64,000 nucleotides of DNA from Escherichia coli (GTDB lineage Bacteria; Pseudomonadota; Gammaproteobacteria; Enterobacterales; Enterobacteriaceae). Numbering within the stretch: the stretch's first letter is position 1; each line of letters begins with the position of its first letter. The position numbers and the translations under genes were made by a program. The DNA lies in assembly GCF_045037415.1 (NCBI RefSeq), contig NZ_CP173438.1. One strand, 5' to 3'. Of the stretch, positions 56,906 to 63,807 are shown piece by piece. Under the pieces are notes generated by a model. The model did not search any database, was not told the origin of the DNA, and worked only from the letters and a program-made list of their open reading frames with translations.

Positions 56906-57229
56906 CAGTGATTTTCCTGTTCAATATATTCTGATAAGACGTTATGTCTGCACCAGCACAGGTGGGGTTTAATCACCTAATAAATGGTAAGTGCATGACA
57001 ACGTACTGACTGGGTAAAATATAGTTCACCAGCAATATTATTATATCAAAAATATACTTTTTATGCAAATAGTAACAAAGAGAAACTAATATGTGGTTCA
57101 GCAATGAAATAACTGGCAATAGGTTTTTATTCATTATTAAGTGATGGCATACTTTCCATTCTGCCATGTCAGACAGGTCAGGATTCCGGGGTGGTTCCTT
57201 CTGTCTGGCATGGCGGAAAACTGACGCTA

Positions 57230-57739
57230 TCACACCTTCCCGTTCAGCTTTTCAAAGAGGCGCTTACGCTCATCTTCGGGCAGCTTCATGATTTGTACCG
57301 CCAGTTCAGAAACATTGGGCACCTGAGACATCAGATCGTCCTTTACCAGCCTGAGGGCCTGCTCCATCAGTTGCGCCCGCGAAGCTGGCGACATATTGCG
57401 ATACAGCTGCACCCAGAGGCTTAGCTGGCGATCACTGTCGTTGAGAGTAAACGCTTCGCCCTTAGCCCTGTTTCTCTCATCATCAAGCGACATTGTGGCT
57501 GCGCTAATATGGTAAACCACACCTTTCCCGGCAGTCCTTTTACGACGTATTTCCGGGTGCAGGGATGCCAGCTTTTCCAAGCGCATCCTGGCGCCACGCG
57601 CAGTGCCCGGCATCCCCTCAATATGAGTGAATTCCTCTGCTGTCAGCCAGTCTTTAGCCTCTTCAACAGAAGCTTCAGGATGAGTAGGTATAGCCGAAAC
57701 TGTTCTCTTACTGCTCATATAAATTTCACCAGATATCAA
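57230..57739 (-). CDS. phage Mu c-repressor-like DNA-binding protein
   Basis: 169-aa ORF with EGMPGTARGARMRL and C-terminal LPEDERKRLFEKLNG, resembling Mu repressor c (AADGMPGSVAGV...LPEEKRKEILSKYG from memory); divergent from a Ner-like gene as in Mu. Confidence 0.6.
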   Translation of the reverse strand: MISGEIYMSSKRTVSAIPTHPEASVEEAKDWLTAEEFTHIEGMPGTARGARMRLEKLASLHPEIRRKRTAGKGVVYHISAATMSLDDERNRAKGEAFTLNDSDRQLSLWVQLYRNMSPASRAQLMEQALRLVKDDLMSQVPNVSELAVQIMKLPEDERKRLFEKLNGKV

Positions 57740-57839
57740 TGCGTTAATATGAAAACCAATAAATAGATACCAAAAGAACTTGAAAGGTATCTTTTATTCG
57801 CATTTAATATCCATGTACTGATTCCATGGAGTTAATACT

Positions 57840-58109
57840 GTGCGTAACTCAACAGCATCGCAGAAAAAGCAAATCAAAGGAAGTTCAGGGAACTGGCATC
57901 GTGCCGATATTGTGGCAGCACTTCACAAGCGAGGGTTAACGCTGGCGTTACTGTCACGCAGTCACGGCCTTGCGCCACGGACATTAAATAACGCCTTAGA
58001 GCGTCATTATCCCAGAGCTGAGCGCATTATTGCCGGGGCTCTGGATACGACACCGGAAACATTATGGCCGGAAAGGTATGCCCTTAAAAATGGACCTAAT
58101 AGCAGGTAA
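57840..58109 (+). CDS. Ner/Nlp-family DNA-binding regulator
   Basis: 89-aa ORF with WHRADIVAALHKRGLTLALLSRSHGLAPRTLNNALERHYPRAERIIAGALDTTPETLWPERY, near-collinear with phage Mu Ner (WHRADVIAGLKKRKLSLSALSRQFGYAPTTLANALERHWPKGEQIIANALETKPEVIWPSRY from memory). Confidence 0.85.
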   Translation: MRNSTASQKKQIKGSSGNWHRADIVAALHKRGLTLALLSRSHGLAPRTLNNALERHYPRAERIIAGALDTTPETLWPERYALKNGPNSR

Positions 58110-58120
58110 AGGATGCAACC

Positions 58121-58648
58121 ATGGCAACCACCATCACTGAAATAACGGAATGCTTTGAGTATTTTTTCAGTTCTCTTTATCGCAGGGAGTTCGTCAAAAC
58201 CCTGCGTCTGAACGAATGTAGCGAGCGGGAATTACTGCCTCTGGTACGTTGCTATTTGCTGGGTTGGTTTGCAGATAACGTCTCACCGGAAGTAAAAAGC
58301 AAACTGCCAGGAACTGTATCCGGGCACGGTTACATTGATTTTGTCATTGACGATGTGGCCGTTGAGTTTGCAGTACGTAAACCAACTGCGGCACGTTCCA
58401 ATGTCTCTGCGACCGTCAACAGTACAGAAGTAAAGAAATTGATGAAACATGACGGCAAAGCCTTGCTTGTGCTGTTTGATTTCTCTGACACACCCTATTC
58501 AGAAGAACAGATTGAATCCTTCCGCAACTGGCCCTCTCTTGGTCGAGGGAATCATCGCAAGTCTGCATTCAACGTCGTTTATTTCTTTGTGGAAAAACGC
58601 AGACCGCTGGCACTGGGGAAAATCACCAAAAACATCCGTATCACTTAA
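58121..58648 (+). CDS. hypothetical protein (possible PD-(D/E)xK-like fold)
   Basis: 175-aa ORF immediately after the ner-like gene; GYIDFVIDDVAVEFAVRK is weakly nuclease-like; assignment is speculative. Confidence 0.4.
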   Translation: MATTITEITECFEYFFSSLYRREFVKTLRLNECSERELLPLVRCYLLGWFADNVSPEVKSKLPGTVSGHGYIDFVIDDVAVEFAVRKPTAARSNVSATVNSTEVKKLMKHDGKALLVLFDFSDTPYSEEQIESFRNWPSLGRGNHRKSAFNVVYFFVEKRRPLALGKITKNIRIT

Positions 58649-58662
58649 CAGGGAATTAATTA

Positions 58663-59022
58663 ATGAACAGAAAACTGTTGGCCTTATTCATGGCAGCCAT
58701 AACGCTACCAGTCGCAGCAGCGCAGTACGTAAAACCCGGAGCGGTTCTAACCCTGCATCCGGGACAGAATAACGCTGAATTCAACATTAATGCCTCAACG
58801 GGGGATGGTTCGGGCGTATGCAATATGGAGGGGACAGCACAGCAAATAGCTGCCGGAGAAAGTCAGAAGCGTCGCTGGGTCTGGAATGACAATGCCAGCG
58901 AGTGTGTTGCAGTAATTAGTGAACTGACAAACGGTAAGGCCAGCATTATGACACGTGGTTGCGAGGGATACTGCGGGGCTTCTGCGGCAGGCGCAATGGA
59001 TGGTCTATTTAATAAGAAATAA
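58663..59022 (+). CDS. hypothetical secreted Cys-containing protein
   Basis: 119-aa ORF with signal peptide MNRKLLALFMAAITLPVAAAQ and four Cys. Confidence 0.5.
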   Translation: MNRKLLALFMAAITLPVAAAQYVKPGAVLTLHPGQNNAEFNINASTGDGSGVCNMEGTAQQIAAGESQKRRWVWNDNASECVAVISELTNGKASIMTRGCEGYCGASAAGAMDGLFNKK

Positions 59023-59052
59023 AAGTATCATTAATTTACGAAGGAACTACAG

Positions 59053-59388
59053 ATGAAAAGAGCAATACTTCTGGTATTAATTGCTGCTGGTTTGCTGGCT
59101 GGCTGCGGCGAGAAAACGCCAAAATGTAGTAGTGATGATGCAAAAAATCTGGTCGGGGATATTGCAAGAAAGACAATCGAGAAAGGGATGAAACTGGATA
59201 AGGATGTGCGTATTTCTGTAGAAAATGTCAGAACAATTAGCCATGAATCAGATCTGGATGTTTATCAGTGCGCTGCTGATTTAACGTTTACAAAACCAGA
59301 TTTGCAAAATTCTCTACCAATCACCTACCGGATTCAGAAAACTGATGAGGGTAAAGGTCCGTTTTATATAAACGTAACAGGTTTATAA
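59053..59388 (+). CDS. hypothetical lipoprotein
   Basis: 111-aa ORF with lipobox MKRAILLVLIAAGLLAGCGEK. Confidence 0.55.
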   Translation: MKRAILLVLIAAGLLAGCGEKTPKCSSDDAKNLVGDIARKTIEKGMKLDKDVRISVENVRTISHESDLDVYQCAADLTFTKPDLQNSLPITYRIQKTDEGKGPFYINVTGL

Positions 59389-59454
59389 TCACTGAATAAC
59401 ATCCGGGTTCCTTTTGGGTGAAATAATTCATGTTTTATTCCAAAAGGAAACCCT

Positions 59455-59700
59455 ATGAAAAAGATCATCATATTTACCATTATAGCTATTATCACATTTA
59501 GTTGGCTCGTTACACACAATACAACTGAGTCCGAAAAAATCCCTCCTGCTAATACTCCCTTTATTATTAAGTCTAACGTACCTGGCATGTGCAAGGTCAG
59601 CGCCATCACAACCTCTACAGATACCAAACAGAATATACCTGTCGTAGCGTGCAAAATCAGCATTACGACCGCAATCACTTCCAGTACTACCAGTTACTGA
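59455..59700 (+). CDS. hypothetical small secreted/membrane protein
   Basis: 81-aa ORF with N-terminal hydrophobic signal/anchor and a Ser/Thr-rich tail. Confidence 0.4.
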   Translation: MKKIIIFTIIAIITFSWLVTHNTTESEKIPPANTPFIIKSNVPGMCKVSAITTSTDTKQNIPVVACKISITTAITSSTTSY

Positions 59701-60267
59701 TCACTGTGTTTACTTTACCGACAGACTGGGATACAAAAACGTCAAACACCTTCTCAATCAGTCTTATACCGTAAGCAATGCCGGGTGTGTCGGGCTCTGA
59801 GGGTTGATTAATTCCACAGGCATATGAAGACTAAATCCTACCATCCCCATACCTGCTGAGCCGCTCCGTTGAACATCTTTATCGCCTTGCTGTGGGTGCC
59901 AATCACGGCTATCCCCGCCCGTCTTGTAGGTTGGGGCTCACCAAATACGATGCCACTGGGAAGCTCTTTCAGTGTCACGTAATGCCATTTATAGCCCAGA
60001 TATGACCTGCTACTGAGCTAACTACATTGATTTGCCTAAATCCTGGGGCCTCTAAAGCGTCAGCGCCGCGCAGCAGTATAGGCAAGCCACTTTTAACGGG
60101 TTTTATCCGGCTCCCTGAGGCTGCTTTCAGAAAAGGCGTGTAATCGGATAACTACAGCAACCTAGGGAAGTATGTGCTTGTAGAATGAATGCAGTGGTAA
60201 TCAAGACTACCGCTTTTACAAACCCCACCAATCGTATAACTGCGATTTGATGGCTACCCATCCTAAG

Positions 60268-62154
60268 TTACTTCATTAAAATAGCACTATTTTTTGAGGG
60301 CAGCGGGATAAGGGCTCTGCGCTCTCCATCCATTGCATGTTCACCCGCAAACCATTCGTAATGAACTTTATTCATGATTGATACCGGCGGTTCTTTATTC
60401 TCTATAACTATGATTTGTAAGGTATCAGGCAATTGGGTCAGTGAATGCCAGAAGCCTTCCTCAATACCAGCCGATATGGGTTCATCGAAGCCCGATACCG
60501 TAGCAGCGGCTTTCTTCTTATAACTTGTCAGCGGTGAATCAATCACGACTAGCCCAGGATGCGGGTATCCTTTTTTAATACAATATTTTAGTAATCCAAT
60601 GATGAAAGCTGAATAAAGAATGGCACGAACACCTTTACCGTGAGACTGCCGAGGTTGTCCATCAACAATGATGTCATACTCTTTTTCATTAAATGAAACG
60701 TCAGGCTCGGCACCCCATTTCCAGTCTTTTAAAACAGTTTCAATTTCTCTACAAAGTTCGGCCAGCGTACGGGTAGATAATCCCTCCCATTCGAGCCGTG
60801 GTTGACTGCTCTTTTCCAGCAGTATTTCTATATCCTTTTGATGTTTTAGTAACTCAAACCATCTCTGTCGATCATTCAACTCAGAGTCTCTTTCAGCTCG
60901 CTGCTCAATAGCTAAATCTAGGCTTTCTTTGGAAAGTGTAAGAAGAGGCTCAAAAGTATATTTGATCTGGTTCTTCATTCCATCCAAGCTTTCTTTTGAC
61001 TTATATCTGTCTATATTCAGAGCTTCTTTTCTTCGGTCAAGATCACTCATCGCTTTTTGCAGGCCTGCAAGGTATCCATGAATTTTTGCAGCTTCAGCTA
61101 AAGAAGAACGTCGGACTTCATTACTGTTCATTAATTTTTTAGCGTTCTCACTGTGTGGATGTAGTAAATTTTGTCCACAAAGGGAACAAGGAACTTCCTG
61201 AAGTGAAGTGAAATAGTGAGAACCTTCGGAAATAAAATCCAACCGCTTCAGGTCGGAATGGTAACGTTCTTCTAATAGGCTATATCTCGATTGAATTTCA
61301 GATACTCCCATTAACTGAGATTCTATTTTTAACGTTAACGCTGTCTCCATTTTTATTCCCTCGAGCAAGTCAGAAATAGCGGCTGCAGCCCTCTCAACTT
61401 CATCAATTGCTTGTGCAATCAATTGATCTGATAAATCATCTGCTGAGCTCGTTAATGGAAACTTGGGCGAACAAATTGAGAAACGTTCATCAAGTGGTCG
61501 AATCAAATCCTGGATGAATTCAAGCTTCGCCATCAACCTCGCTTTTACAATTTCAGGCTTTTCCTCTACGGTAACACCACCATCATCGTGCCCGGTAAGG
61601 ATGTATGAAAACATGCGTTTTCGAGCAGTGTCGTCATAACCGGAACGTCCCGTTACTGGCGAGTATTCGTCGATAATGGATACTTCATCTACCAAAAATA
61701 TAGGAGCGAGCGTTCGAATCGAGAAACGTTGCGTTTCGCCACGAGCATTCTTGCGAAGCTTCGCCTCTTTGATCCCCGCAAAAGGGAAAAGTATGGACGT
61801 CACATCTGGCCCCTTACTCGTTCCTTTACGCACAGGAGCAATTATTTTACCTTCTCCATGGATGTCTTGAATAGCGACATCATGTGCCTCTAATTTCCCC
61901 CCCTCAAGACCGCGCTTGAGCGTTAACACCCCCCCTTCATCATTTTCGAATTCAACATAAAGATGGGTGTAATCGGTGGCCTCTTTAAGCTTTTTTTTGA
62001 GTTTTTCGGCACCAAGAATGTAGTCAAGACAACTCACAAGGTAACTTTTCCCAGTATCAGATTCCCCTGCTAGAATATTCGCACCCTTATAGAAATCAAC
62101 ATAAGCGTCTTGAACGCTGTTTCCGCGCAATAGTATTTTTCTTATACGAAGCAT
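60268..62154 (-). CDS. Rad50/SMC-like ABC ATPase with coiled coil and central CxxC hook (LmuB/DdmC-like)
   Basis: ORF 60268..62175; start set at the ATG at 62154 (MLRIRKILLRG); N-terminal Walker A GESDTGKSYL, long helical middle with CSLCGQ near the midpoint, C-terminal Walker B/D-loop (GLVVIDSPLTSY); start lies 1 nt after the upstream gene's stop. Confidence 0.75.
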   Translation of the reverse strand: MLRIRKILLRGNSVQDAYVDFYKGANILAGESDTGKSYLVSCLDYILGAEKLKKKLKEATDYTHLYVEFENDEGGVLTLKRGLEGGKLEAHDVAIQDIHGEGKIIAPVRKGTSKGPDVTSILFPFAGIKEAKLRKNARGETQRFSIRTLAPIFLVDEVSIIDEYSPVTGRSGYDDTARKRMFSYILTGHDDGGVTVEEKPEIVKARLMAKLEFIQDLIRPLDERFSICSPKFPLTSSADDLSDQLIAQAIDEVERAAAAISDLLEGIKMETALTLKIESQLMGVSEIQSRYSLLEERYHSDLKRLDFISEGSHYFTSLQEVPCSLCGQNLLHPHSENAKKLMNSNEVRRSSLAEAAKIHGYLAGLQKAMSDLDRRKEALNIDRYKSKESLDGMKNQIKYTFEPLLTLSKESLDLAIEQRAERDSELNDRQRWFELLKHQKDIEILLEKSSQPRLEWEGLSTRTLAELCREIETVLKDWKWGAEPDVSFNEKEYDIIVDGQPRQSHGKGVRAILYSAFIIGLLKYCIKKGYPHPGLVVIDSPLTSYKKKAAATVSGFDEPISAGIEEGFWHSLTQLPDTLQIIVIENKEPPVSIMNKVHYEWFAGEHAMDGERRALIPLPSKNSAILMK

Positions 62155-62155
62155 G

Positions 62156-62671
62156 TTATAAATCCAGTAGATCAATTGCGGTCAATCGGTCGAATTCAGA
62201 ACCCCATTGCCCCACATTCTGAGATATATATGAAGCAAGTTCTTCATCCGTATATTCATAGAATTGCTTTGTGACCCAAGAGGCACGTTCTGCGAGCTCT
62301 TTTGAATACTGTGACATCAAAAGCCGCACAAACCTTCCTGTTAAATTGGTAGCCTGATACAAAATACCTTCGGCAGCAAAGACAACCTTAATCAATTCTC
62401 TTGATAGCATTAAATGCAGCCCTGCCTGAATTGCGCTTCGCTTAACAAGAAGCTCTGCTCCCCGGTGAGGAACTGCTGGATGAAGGCTTTTAGGCCCCCT
62501 AGGTACGTCACTGGTATGCACAAGAAGATAGTCATACGAAACTATCCTTTGTAGGTCCATTGCTACATTGTCCGCTGCATCCAATATGAACAGAGCACGA
62601 AATCCATACTCCAGCGGAGTGTTAAAAGGTCTCTGCTCAAAGTTTCCTTCAAATACTTGCATTTCGCTCAT
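62156..62671 (-). CDS. small middle-component protein (LmuC/DdmB-like)
   Basis: ORF 62156..62683 opens with a non-ATG codon; the ATG at 62671 (MSEMQVFEG) overlaps the upstream stop as ATGA; about 171 aa, no recognisable catalytic motif. Confidence 0.6.
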   Translation of the reverse strand: MSEMQVFEGNFEQRPFNTPLEYGFRALFILDAADNVAMDLQRIVSYDYLLVHTSDVPRGPKSLHPAVPHRGAELLVKRSAIQAGLHLMLSRELIKVVFAAEGILYQATNLTGRFVRLLMSQYSKELAERASWVTKQFYEYTDEELASYISQNVGQWGSEFDRLTAIDLLDL

Positions 62672-63807
62672 GGATTGCACCAATTAATCAAGTTTGTATT
62701 GGCTAGTTGGTGGCATATACCTTCACGATCCTTATTCGTTACGTGAATGGCAAGTGGGTGCGCACCAAGTTGCAGGGTCTGAGCGGCCTTGACGGTATTT
62801 TTTAACCGAAGGAGTGGAGTCCCTGTCAGGTCAGAGGTGTAGTGATACAGACCATCATCAAACTCTACAAGTAAAGAATTAAAGAATTCTTGATTCGCCA
62901 TTTGGTCCCTAGCGAGTTCCTTTAGCCCTTCCGAGCAATAAAAAGTTATTCGGGACCGTTCAAAGAGTTTTACATGGCTGATACTTGATTGAAAATCAAC
63001 TAAATCTCGCACGTTGGTTTTGATATCAGCGCTGATAACTGAAAAGAGTTGTTCAATATATACAGTTTCAATGGGAGCCACAGATGATGGGGGCCTAGTT
63101 GGTGGATCCCGCTCAATTAATGGTGCGCCAAAGACCATAAGATGAAAAGAGGTTTTACTGTGTTCGGCAAGTATCTCAATAGGCTGTTTTGCATGAAAAA
63201 TACTAAAATCAAACTCTTTAATATATTTTTCAAGTTCAGGCGTCAGGTCAACACTATGTTTCGATGTAATTTGCTTTGAAAAAGTTGCCCACTCGGATAG
63301 CATTTTCTCTTTGAGTTTAGTTGGATCATCTAGGAGGTCTTGGAATGGCGATGTTACCCCTTTATGTGTAACAAAATGGTATTGTGTAGGTACTGTGTAG
63401 TCCTTGATGAAAGTATAATAGATAACTTTTGCAACTTCGATGCCTGCCTTAGGAAGGCCTAAATTCGCATCATAATGTTTGCATTGATATAAGTGCCATC
63501 TTCGAGGAACAGCATCAGATGGATCAAGCCATACAACAATATCTCTGCCTTTATCTCCTGCCCCGCCACGTTGTTGTACTTCGTTGACATATTGCTGACC
63601 AGCTAAGTATTCAGAGGCCCATTCGAGTGTAAACCTTTCAAATTCGGCGGCGCTAAACTGTGCCAGACGATCCAAGGGGGCTATTGGAAGCCCTACACCT
63701 AACCCAAGCAGCCGAGCGTTCGCACCCGGCCACGTTGTAGGAGCAGAAAGCGCGCCAAGCGTCGAACTTGAATTTTGTTTCATCTTCTCTACCACCACAA
63801 CCTCCAT
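62668..63807 (-). CDS. putative effector with N-terminal PD-(D/E)xK-like (Cap4/DUF4297-like) nuclease motif (LmuA/DdmA-like)
   Basis: 379-aa ORF; GDKGRDIVVWLDPSD...WHLYQCKHY fits a D...(E/Q)xK nuclease core; first gene of a 3-gene coupled operon; alternative start at the ATG at 63783. Confidence 0.6.
   Translation of the reverse strand: MEVVVVEKMKQNSSSTLGALSAPTTWPGANARLLGLGVGLPIAPLDRLAQFSAAEFERFTLEWASEYLAGQQYVNEVQQRGGAGDKGRDIVVWLDPSDAVPRRWHLYQCKHYDANLGLPKAGIEVAKVIYYTFIKDYTVPTQYHFVTHKGVTSPFQDLLDDPTKLKEKMLSEWATFSKQITSKHSVDLTPELEKYIKEFDFSIFHAKQPIEILAEHSKTSFHLMVFGAPLIERDPPTRPPSSVAPIETVYIEQLFSVISADIKTNVRDLVDFQSSISHVKLFERSRITFYCSEGLKELARDQMANQEFFNSLLVEFDDGLYHYTSDLTGTPLLRLKNTVKAAQTLQLGAHPLAIHVTNKDREGICHQLANTNLINWCNP

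Follow-up and report, generated by a model that had tools for sequence, protein, structure and literature searches.

A conserved gene block in the core of ychF-adjacent chromosomal islands encodes a protein with a predicted restriction-endonuclease fold and three putatively exported small proteins

What is the role of four small genes that follow the ner-like gene of a Mu-type regulatory switch in a chromosomal island of Escherichia coli? We addressed this question on a 64,000-nucleotide stretch of contig NZ_CP173438.1 (assembly GCF_045037415.1), termed the window, in which the four genes encode proteins of 175, 119, 111 and 81 residues, referred to as p175, p119, p111 and p81. Together with ner, the genes belong to the core shared by a family of chromosomal islands that lie integrated beside ychF, and are not defence cargo, and p175 adopts in its structural model a BamHI-like PD-(D/E)xK fold. 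Tentatively, we read p175 as a solitary nuclease directed against foreign or unusual DNA and the remaining trio as protecting the envelope, with p119 blocking a lysozyme-type enzyme. The features of the locus are the following, the assignments of fold and export being predictions.

57230–57739, minus strand: Mu c-like repressor gene, 169 aa, divergent from the operon, with PHROG matches
57740–57839, no strand assigned: divergent control region between the repressor gene and ner, 100 bp, defined by position only
57840–58109, plus strand: ner-like gene, 89 aa, first gene of the operon, Pfam HTH_35 match at 1.5e-26
58121–58648, plus strand: p175, 175 aa, cytoplasmic, predicted PD-(D/E)xK restriction-endonuclease fold, of a family without a Pfam model
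58663–59022, plus strand: p119, 119 aa, predicted Sec-exported periplasmic eight-stranded β-barrel with four invariant Cys and a CEGYCG motif
59053–59388, plus strand: p111, 111 aa, lipoprotein, probably of the outer membrane, predicted NTF2/cystatin-like fold
59400–59457, plus strand: conserved hairpin in the p111/p81 gap (inverted repeat I1), its 3′ arm lying over the p81 Shine–Dalgarno sequence and ATG
59455–59700, plus strand: p81, 81 aa, predicted signal-anchored bitopic protein, its periplasmic tail carrying S-x2-PG-x-C...P...C

The table of open reading frames (ORFs) places the four genes on the plus strand directly after the ner-like gene, as the original prediction had it, and ner, p175, p119, p111 and p81 run rightward as a single closely packed block, with intergenic gaps of 11, 14, 30 and 66 nt. 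A purine-rich Shine–Dalgarno sequence of the GGAG/AGGA type can be read 6–7 nt before each of the four starts. Consensus scanning of positions 57000–60400 returned no terminator-like site and, within the block, no promoter-like site on the plus strand; the short gaps and the lack of a terminator-like site fit a single transcript from the 100-bp region shared with the divergent 169-aa gene. This region contains a palindrome at 57815–57838. Besides HTH_35, the ner-like product resembles phrog_769 (1.2e-29) and NCBIfam SfsB (1.5e-19, under the model cutoff), and a PHROGs search related repressor residues 27–98 to phrog_310 (N-terminal region of MuA-type transposases, 1e-7) and residues 27–80 to phrog_7148 (transcriptional repressor, 1e-5). 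Based on these matches, the earlier description of a Mu-like switch is a fair one, and the four genes do lie within a mobile island, directly 3′ of a Mu-type c/ner pair. The proposed export of three of the four proteins likewise stands, resting on a Sec signal in p119, a lipobox in p111 and a hydrophobic anchor in p81, all of which were assessed by eye.

For p175, an isoelectric point of 9.0 and the absence of any hydrophobic or membrane segment were found. The protein remained unmatched in Pfam, PHROGs, NCBIfam, PADLOC and the PDB sequences, both with single-sequence and with profile queries, including a 76-sequence profile; sequence and profile searches of the PDB were also empty for the p119 and p111 families. 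An exhaustive profile search of 1.84 billion representative proteins yielded only 121 p175 clusters, nearly all of 165–185 aa, across which E35, E57, D73, E82, E103, K106 and D120 are conserved; E57, D73, E82 and K106 are each conserved in at least 90% of 76 family members. A first AlphaFold 2 (AF2) run based on 31 close homologues gave a mean confidence (pLDDT, predicted local distance difference test) of 62 and meaningless Foldseek matches (acetyl-CoA carboxylase, phospholipase D). The confident model came from a second run with a fused, linker-anchored alignment that combined deep p175 rows with rows for p119 and p111; as the fused model and the search outputs carry no query ranges, matches were assigned to domains by target type and aligned length.

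In this second model p175 reaches a pLDDT of 96–98 over most of the chain, comprising helices 5–18, 35–53 and 101–108, the consecutive strands 54–61, 69–76 and 79–86, a further strand 113–120 and a C-terminal hairpin. The core α-β-β-β-α-β arrangement of the PD-(D/E)xK superfamily is present, and the modelled fold is of the BamHI-like PD-(D/E)xK type, upholding at the level of fold the weak nuclease-like motif that had originally been noticed in this ORF. E57, D73 and E82 sit on the three consecutive strands. The xK position of the motif is occupied by Ala84, and the conserved K106 is found on the next helix, from which we infer that K106 may act as a relocated catalytic lysine with E57, D73 and E82 as catalytic equivalents. 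Among 23 sub-threshold Pfam matches of single family members, six were to PD-(D/E)xK families (E 0.02–0.26), and one member weakly matches Tox-REase-9. A different assignment as an HKD nuclease, derived from weak phospholipase D matches and an H145/K147 'HxK', was dropped: both residues are less than 80% conserved in the wider family, and the confident model matches BamHI-type enzymes. No methyltransferase gene was found next to p175 in the island, in the sister islands or beside the stand-alone copies.

Some homologues are longer. In Rodentibacter (L043 9983–10852; locus numbers L refer to the collection described below) and in the homologues P0402 and P0420, the p175 domain is followed by a C-terminal extension of 115–160 aa that appears β-rich by eye and has no Pfam match. 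Pfam scans of the longer homologues (284–344 aa) revealed no informative fused domain. At L043, an XRE regulator lies divergently upstream of the fusion gene, like that of some enterobacterial islands.

The genes evolve as coding units. Protein searches collected 268 homologues of p175, 159 of p119 and 145 of p111, and we compared the island copies using the ratio of non-synonymous to synonymous substitution rates (dN/dS, Nei–Gojobori). Against sister islands, p175 exhibited values of 0.00–0.05, with one pair showing a dS of 0.35 at a dN of zero and the comparison to Cedecea a dS of 0.82 at a dN of 0.008; judged by these rates, p175 is under extreme purifying selection. The values for p111 were 0.04–0.14, and those for p119 0.07–0.19 in the more distant pairs and 0.41–0.64 in three close pairs. 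Ratios well under 1 together with conservation across genera refute a reading as non-coding ORFs.

The original prediction viewed the four genes as one unit, but p175 is separable. Islands of Aeromonas carry it without the envelope trio, and outside the island family it stands alone, at 55–69% identity, in Geobacter, Nitrosomonas, Salinisphaera, Solimonas, Asticcacaulis, Paracoccus and Novosphingobium, frequently in the company of toxin–antitoxin genes, as in Geobacter and Nitrosomonas; HicAB, HigBA and MazEF are among the neighbours of stand-alone copies. Two homologues can be placed in integrons by an IntI match, manual reading and a repeat count, the output of an automated attC finder having been disregarded as it missed known Salinisphaera sites. 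In a metagenome-assembled genome of the Nitrosomonadales (L032 423–2300), p175 is the first cassette by intI (TIGR02249, 477 bits versus a cutoff of 265), with GTTAGAG abutting its start codon and a CTCTAAC...GTTAGGT attC closing the cassette, which also holds a 58-aa ORF without counterpart at other loci. In Salinisphaera japonica (L029 2015–6230), p175 forms a single cassette between two of eight arrayed attC-like repeats (0.01 expected by chance), its stop codon lying inside a GCCTAAC core. On sequence grounds, p175 homologues are thus integron gene cassettes, which the window copy is not. On plasmids, only 4 of 72,556 records matched p175, all of them typed non-mobilizable.

We next consider p119, whose N-terminus, MNRK-LLALFMAAITLPVAAA followed by QY, reads as a Sec signal with a hydrophobic core and then an AxA site (AAA/QY). 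The family is confined to Enterobacterales, is encoded solely in this island family and always behind p175, and is characterized by four invariant Cys and an invariant, family-specific CEGYCG motif. The model shows eight strands at a pLDDT of about 90. Its best small-barrel matches are all PliC, MliC, PhiA or ACP, and 76 of 85 residues can be superposed on PliC-St at 2.6 Å. The conserved GSGxCN loop only recalls the MliC/PliC motifs, and aligning the family profile with E. coli MliC (hhalign) paired only the signal peptides, at a probability of 1.7%. In RefSeq and UniRef, dozens of p119 homologues bear the name 'acyl-CoA dehydrogenase' (e.g. L003 12731–13090). This identity is refuted, p119 being an exported 99-residue β protein with no such Pfam domain, and the label looks like a propagated annotation error.

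The lipobox of p111, MKRAILLVLIAAGLLAG-C18, contains G17 and C18, which are invariant in 23 sequences. Residue +2 is Gly and not Asp, for which outer-membrane sorting is expected under the Lol rule, and p111 is probably an outer-membrane lipoprotein. According to the model its globular part has an NTF2/cystatin-like fold, a fold group that includes the periplasmic domains of VirB8, TraE, DotI and TcpC. Matches to models of Rz-like spanins, Cor, EexN, LptM and entericidin cover only the signal/lipobox region; the one to the Rz-like spanin PHROG (E 0.007) spans residues 3–28 only.

The weakest of the four genes is p81, which is not annotated by the NCBI Prokaryotic Genome Annotation Pipeline (PGAP) and is called by other sources (UniProt A0A061KQH5); the antisense ORF is not on record. 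MKK and a 17-residue hydrophobic stretch (residues 4–20) with no good signal-peptidase site precede the rest of the protein, and Ser/Thr make up 30%, features that mark p81 as a small protein with a predicted type II anchor and a periplasmic tail rich in Ser/Thr. A jackhmmer search of all ORFs of the fetched loci identified relatives in eight loci, after p111 or at the end of the module, five of them intact. The intact homologues in four other islands share 26–39% identity, the same position and two invariant Cys, and across the intact copies K2, K3, S40, P43, G44, C46, I51, P62 and C66 are invariant. As the copies in other loci are truncated, the right edge of the conserved block runs through p81. 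The hairpin between p111 and p81 folds as RNA at −23.9 kcal/mol (z −3.4). Its CCTTTTGG/CCAAAAGG core is kept in L003, L010, L013, L015 and L019, with a variable flanking stem and even at loci with degraded p81, and it is absent from E. coli CLSC36. The hairpin marks the border between the conserved core and the variable cargo.

The genomic setting was delineated on 50 loci, gathered by scanning genome collections with a p175 alignment and by context look-ups. The window region is 100% identical to E. coli ST131-type chromosomes, and in strain SA186 the island spans about 29 kb between ychF and dhaR, holding also a P4-type integrase, debris of insertion sequences (IS) and an internal XerC-like recombinase. 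Onward it contains RadC, a 179-aa protein, DUF2787, the repressor/ner pair and the four genes, past which follow a Lamassu operon on the opposite strand and then a retron Ec67-family reverse transcriptase. A tblastn map revealed the same core order, namely AlpA, a small ORF, an integrase, RadC, the 179-aa protein, DUF2787, a regulator, an optional Ner and p175, in about 26 Enterobacterales and Aeromonas loci (Escherichia, Salmonella, Citrobacter, the Klebsiella group, Serratia, Pantoea, Yersinia, Pectobacterium, Hafnia, Budvicia and Aeromonas). The p119 family was present in 20 loci, p111 in 21 and p81 in 8. The block stands under an island-encoded regulator, either a Mu c/Ner pair or a divergent XRE-type helix-turn-helix (HTH) protein, the repressor slot being kept in place or filled by the latter. 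Several of the 26 or so loci likewise adjoin ychF. We observed ychF-adjoining islands of the family in E. coli, Salmonella and Aeromonas (flanks of L011 and L047; L001 268–2749), suggesting an insertion site conserved across orders, and in E. coli and Salmonella a P4-type integrase at the ychF end besides the internal XerC-like recombinase.

To the right of the block the picture changes from host to host. ST131 has Lamassu and the retron there, CLSC36 very large helicase-type genes, Salmonella acyl- and glycosyltransferases and Citrobacter a chaperone-usher fimbrial operon, whereas the spacing within the block is identical in the Salmonella and Citrobacter islands despite their unrelated cargo. 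The stretch of 93.7% identity in CLSC36 coincides exactly with p175, p119 and p111 (window 58122–59391). The block therefore belongs to the conserved core of the island family, and with such variable cargo its adjacency to a defence operon is accidental in this strain. The original prediction had taken that placement as suggestive; it is coincidental, as the same ner/p175/p119/p111 block elsewhere precedes helicase, glycosyltransferase or fimbrial genes.

Among complete E. coli genomes, 595 of 5,426 carry the block, always on the chromosome, nearly always in single copy and mostly at identities of at least 99%; the carriers are mostly human clinical ST131-type strains. It is also present in the plant and environmental genera Pantoea, Lonsdalea, Kosakonia, Phytobacter, Mangrovibacter and Cedecea. 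Longer versions of the module were found in L010, L035, L044 and L027, with extra genes interleaved among the exported ones, which encode an FtsK-gamma-like protein (63–65 aa), a membrane protein (about 115 aa) and a further protein of about 265 aa; the first of these is a winged-helix protein (L010 6691–6888) that matches Pfam FtsK_gamma at 1.3e-6, under the cutoff. The E. coli block looks like a reduced form of this longer module. In some E. coli it is broken by IS elements, with IS1 between p119 and p111 (L003 13135–13832) and ISEc52 elsewhere in the 3.3-kb stretch, which means that the operon can be disrupted without loss of viability.

The remaining neighbourhood offered several observations in their own right. 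A complete Lamassu system occupies window positions 60268–63807 on the minus strand (PADLOC: LmuB 2.8e-176, LmuC 4.3e-57, LmuA 1.4e-105), and just past the window end the reference strain carries a retron Ec67-family reverse transcriptase/endonuclease. Between p81 and the lmuB end, about 570 bp (59701–60267) hold no convincing gene, with a 46-aa ORF at 59838–59978 on the minus strand; this gap may have been left behind by an exchange of cargo. The conserved 179-aa core protein (55902–56441, minus strand) between RadC and DUF2787 had no library match. By eye it shows a Q...C(G)...H...D/N pattern (QQGELDCLCGAY ... HWSLLV ... DSNG) recalling papain-like cysteine peptidases, which, taken with the JAB-type RadC, suggests an island core rich in proteases.

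How, then, might the block act? We give a probability of roughly 0.4 to the reading named at the outset, that p175 is a solitary nuclease against foreign or unusual DNA and the trio protects the envelope, p119 by blocking a lysozyme-type enzyme. Under it, p175 would be a Mg2+-dependent DNA endonuclease requiring no partner methyltransferase, and would act on DNA of kinds not ordinarily found in the host, such as modified or otherwise atypical incoming molecules or particular structural forms, thereby serving the island as a miniature, Type IV-like restriction function. The proteins p119, p111 and p81 would be periplasmic binding or inhibitor-type proteins, of which p119 would most likely block a lysozyme-type peptidoglycan hydrolase, be it of phage-tail, competitor or animal-host origin, with p111 and p81 as possible partners or anchors. 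The nuclease part is favoured by the conservation of E57, D73, E82 and K106, the sub-threshold PD-(D/E)xK matches and the basic isoelectric point of p175; for the envelope part speak the barrel matches of p119, the precedent of ACP and the raised dN/dS of p119 in the three close pairs. The operon would then represent a constitutive, repressor-tuned self-protection module of the island, apart from the exchangeable cargo. We know of no tested integron cassette that is a p175 homologue. According to a review (PMC12409362), phage defence was conferred by roughly 10–16% of the function-unknown integron cassettes put to the test, and integron-borne restriction genes are miniaturised, which makes a compact, partner-less p175 nuclease with a defence role a reasonable reading. 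The immunity- or exclusion-like role proposed originally is partly retained, in that the inhibitor/immunity-type folds modelled for p119 and p111 fit it; homology to superinfection-exclusion proteins was not found. The matches to Cor, Rz and EexN are confined to the signal peptide or lipobox, and p175, p119 and p111 had no homologue in 50,697 phage genomes, so the tie to superinfection exclusion by homology falls.

Several observations weigh against this reading. No PADLOC defence-system model matches: in PADLOC-DB v2, p175, p119, p111, p81, Ner and the repressor were without a hit, with LmuA/B/C as positive control at 1e-57 to 1e-176. Where ExK motifs have their K and BamHI its E113, at the third catalytic position of the classical enzymes, p175 has Ala84, so that activity would depend on an assumed relocation to K106. 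Restriction enzymes normally diverge fast. With 65% identity between E. coli and Geobacter and a dN/dS of about 0.01, p175 is unusual for such an enzyme, and its extreme conservation may point to a conserved cellular partner instead. Its constant place in the island core behind a lysogeny-type switch would equally suit a life-cycle role, and the IS-broken copies show that the block is dispensable. Eight-stranded barrels are a common generic fold. For p119, no PF09864 match, no SxSGAxY, no YxxxTKG and no profile similarity to MliC were found, and for PhiA, which ranks among its best fold matches, inhibition of the presumed target was not seen in vitro (PMC8334348).

A bolder form of the reading is that p175 founds a new miniature, methyltransferase-free restriction-fold family, common to integron cassette arrays and to the fixed core of the enterobacterial islands, and that the trio is a new envelope exclusion system built on a lysozyme-inhibitor-type barrel, which would neutralise peptidoglycan-degrading enzymes brought by phage tails or competitors. 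We consider this unlikely, and the same holds for its corollary that the near-frozen p175 sequence would reflect recognition of a universal feature of invading DNA. Were it true, the island would, independently of its swappable cargo, possess an inbuilt defence in two layers, one acting at the envelope and one on the DNA.

Of the alternatives, the one that survives best, though we still hold it to be unlikely, assigns the block to the life cycle of the island: once the c/Ner switch flips, p175 would either process DNA so that the island can excise, replicate or be mobilised, or degrade host DNA, and the trio would provide entry exclusion of sister islands or a contact for helper transfer. This would account well for a block that is found without exception in the core, beside the integrase, AlpA and the switch, rather than in the cargo, for the fold group that p111 shares with VirB8, TraE, DotI and TcpC, and for the FtsK-gamma-like DNA-binding protein and further membrane proteins of the longer modules; very strong conservation also suits an interaction with conserved machinery. 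It is at odds with the independent life of p175 in integrons and with the absence of any transfer genes.

The two further alternatives are less likely than the life-cycle one. An addiction or abortive-infection pair, in which a toxic nuclease p175 is restrained by the upstream Ner or XRE HTH protein and the exported proteins are unrelated passengers, appears improbable to us. The layout is toxin–antitoxin-like, a small HTH gene being followed 11 nt later by the effector, stand-alone p175 copies lie among HicAB, HigBA and MazEF, one integron cassette comprises p175 and a 58-aa ORF, and one family member weakly matches Tox-REase-9. However, most stand-alone copies have no upstream partner and the 58-aa ORF occurs at one locus only, the XRE regulator is divergent from p175 and not co-transcribed, and the order and spacing of the trio behind p175 are fixed across genera, against random passengers. 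Ner and p175 are also not a conserved travelling pair, p175 occurring without Ner in the XRE-regulator islands and alone elsewhere. Hardly more credible is a role in host interaction, with p119 and p111 guarding extraintestinal pathogenic E. coli (ExPEC) ST131 and further enteric bacteria against lysozyme and proteases of animal origin and p175 functionally unrelated: the fold matches to lysozyme inhibitors and cystatins and the 595 of 5,426 E. coli carriers, human clinical ST131-type strains, speak for it, but the same module is found in plant and environmental genera and the lysozyme-binding motifs are absent.

Ordinary or artefactual readings are jointly very improbable: for remnants of a Mu-type lysis cassette (p81 as Rz-like i-spanin, p111 as Rz1-like o-spanin), suggested by the weak Rz-like PHROG match of p111 and the type II topology of p81, the globular NTF2-like p111 with its match limited to residues 3–28, the lack of a coiled coil in p81, the absence of holin and endolysin among the nearby window ORFs and the lack of a phage homologue (p81 was not searched) are all unfavourable; housekeeping lipoproteins, a homology named beforehand as a refuting outcome, are refuted by the confinement of the trio genes to this island family; and acyl-CoA dehydrogenase, for which the name on dozens of p119 homologues speaks, and non-coding ORFs fail on the grounds given above.

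The corrected picture of the locus, with the genes as island core rather than part of the adjoining defence cargo, concerns about one in nine complete E. coli genomes and many Salmonella, Citrobacter, Klebsiella, Serratia and Pantoea. All genes of the block are currently labelled 'hypothetical' or, wrongly, 'acyl-CoA dehydrogenase', and a literature look-up by protein accession and island landmarks returned nothing on them. If p175 is an active solitary nuclease, it would be a very small and easily tested single-gene candidate for the catalogue of defence genes and integron cassettes, and would raise the question why a restriction-fold protein evolves so slowly. If p119 inhibits a muramidase, the MliC/PliC/ACP fold group would gain a member borne by a mobile element, which would bear on phage entry or on how a pandemic ExPEC lineage tolerates lysozyme.

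Compared with known systems, p175 is closest to the BamHI family (BamHI, OkrAI, BstYI, BglII). The acidic residues of BamHI are E77, D94 and E111, and the spacing of E57, D73 and E82 in p175 is close to theirs. In contrast to these enzymes, p175 has no sequence-level relationship to the family, no adjoining methyltransferase in any context examined and Ala84 in place of BamHI Glu113 or the Lys of classical enzymes, and differs from typical restriction enzymes in its extremely slow evolution. With integron cassettes p175 shares homologues that are a single-gene cassette or the first cassette by intI, whereas the window copy is fixed in the island core operon, where there is neither attC nor intI. 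Such cassettes of unknown function have been shown to encode, in many cases, miniaturised defence genes, restriction enzymes among them (PMC12409362; see also bioRxiv 10.1101/2024.07.02.601719).

For p119 the predicted likeness is to MliC/PliC together with ACP of Neisseria and PhiA of Brucella, all exported proteins of about 100 aa with a disulfide-stabilised, eight-stranded antiparallel barrel. It differs from MliC/PliC in lacking PF09864, SxSGAxY and YxxxTKG, and in having four invariant Cys and its own CEGYCG motif. ACP inhibits lysozyme with the same fold and without the family motifs (PMC5507604), and PhiA likewise lacks the canonical MliC/PliC motifs (PMC8334348).

As envelope-level exclusion proteins, Spackle of T4, Llp of T5 and Cor may be functional analogues of the trio. 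Llp and Cor are small outer-membrane lipoproteins, Llp being disulfide-bonded; Spackle is helical and Llp a small β protein. Spackle is a periplasmic inhibitor of the tail lysozyme gp5 (PMC7677548). The trio, in turn, has no homology to these proteins, p119 and p111 have no phage-encoded relatives (p81 was not searched), and the folds are others.

At the level of the whole island, we compared the family with pipolins and Vibrio VSP-II. DdmABC is a member of the Lamassu family. The islands described here differ in adjoining ychF instead of residing in a tRNA gene, and, from pipolins, in that neither piPolB nor a WYL protein was seen in the island stretches examined. Gammaproteobacterial pipolins are bimodular with a recombinase and DUF2787 core, a design noted for VSP-II as well (PMC11551731), and the defence systems of VSP-II include DdmABC (review, PMC12409362). 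With both, the islands share a two-part layout in which a conserved core, comprising a tyrosine recombinase, DUF2787 and orphan genes, is followed by exchangeable, defence-rich distal cargo, here Lamassu.

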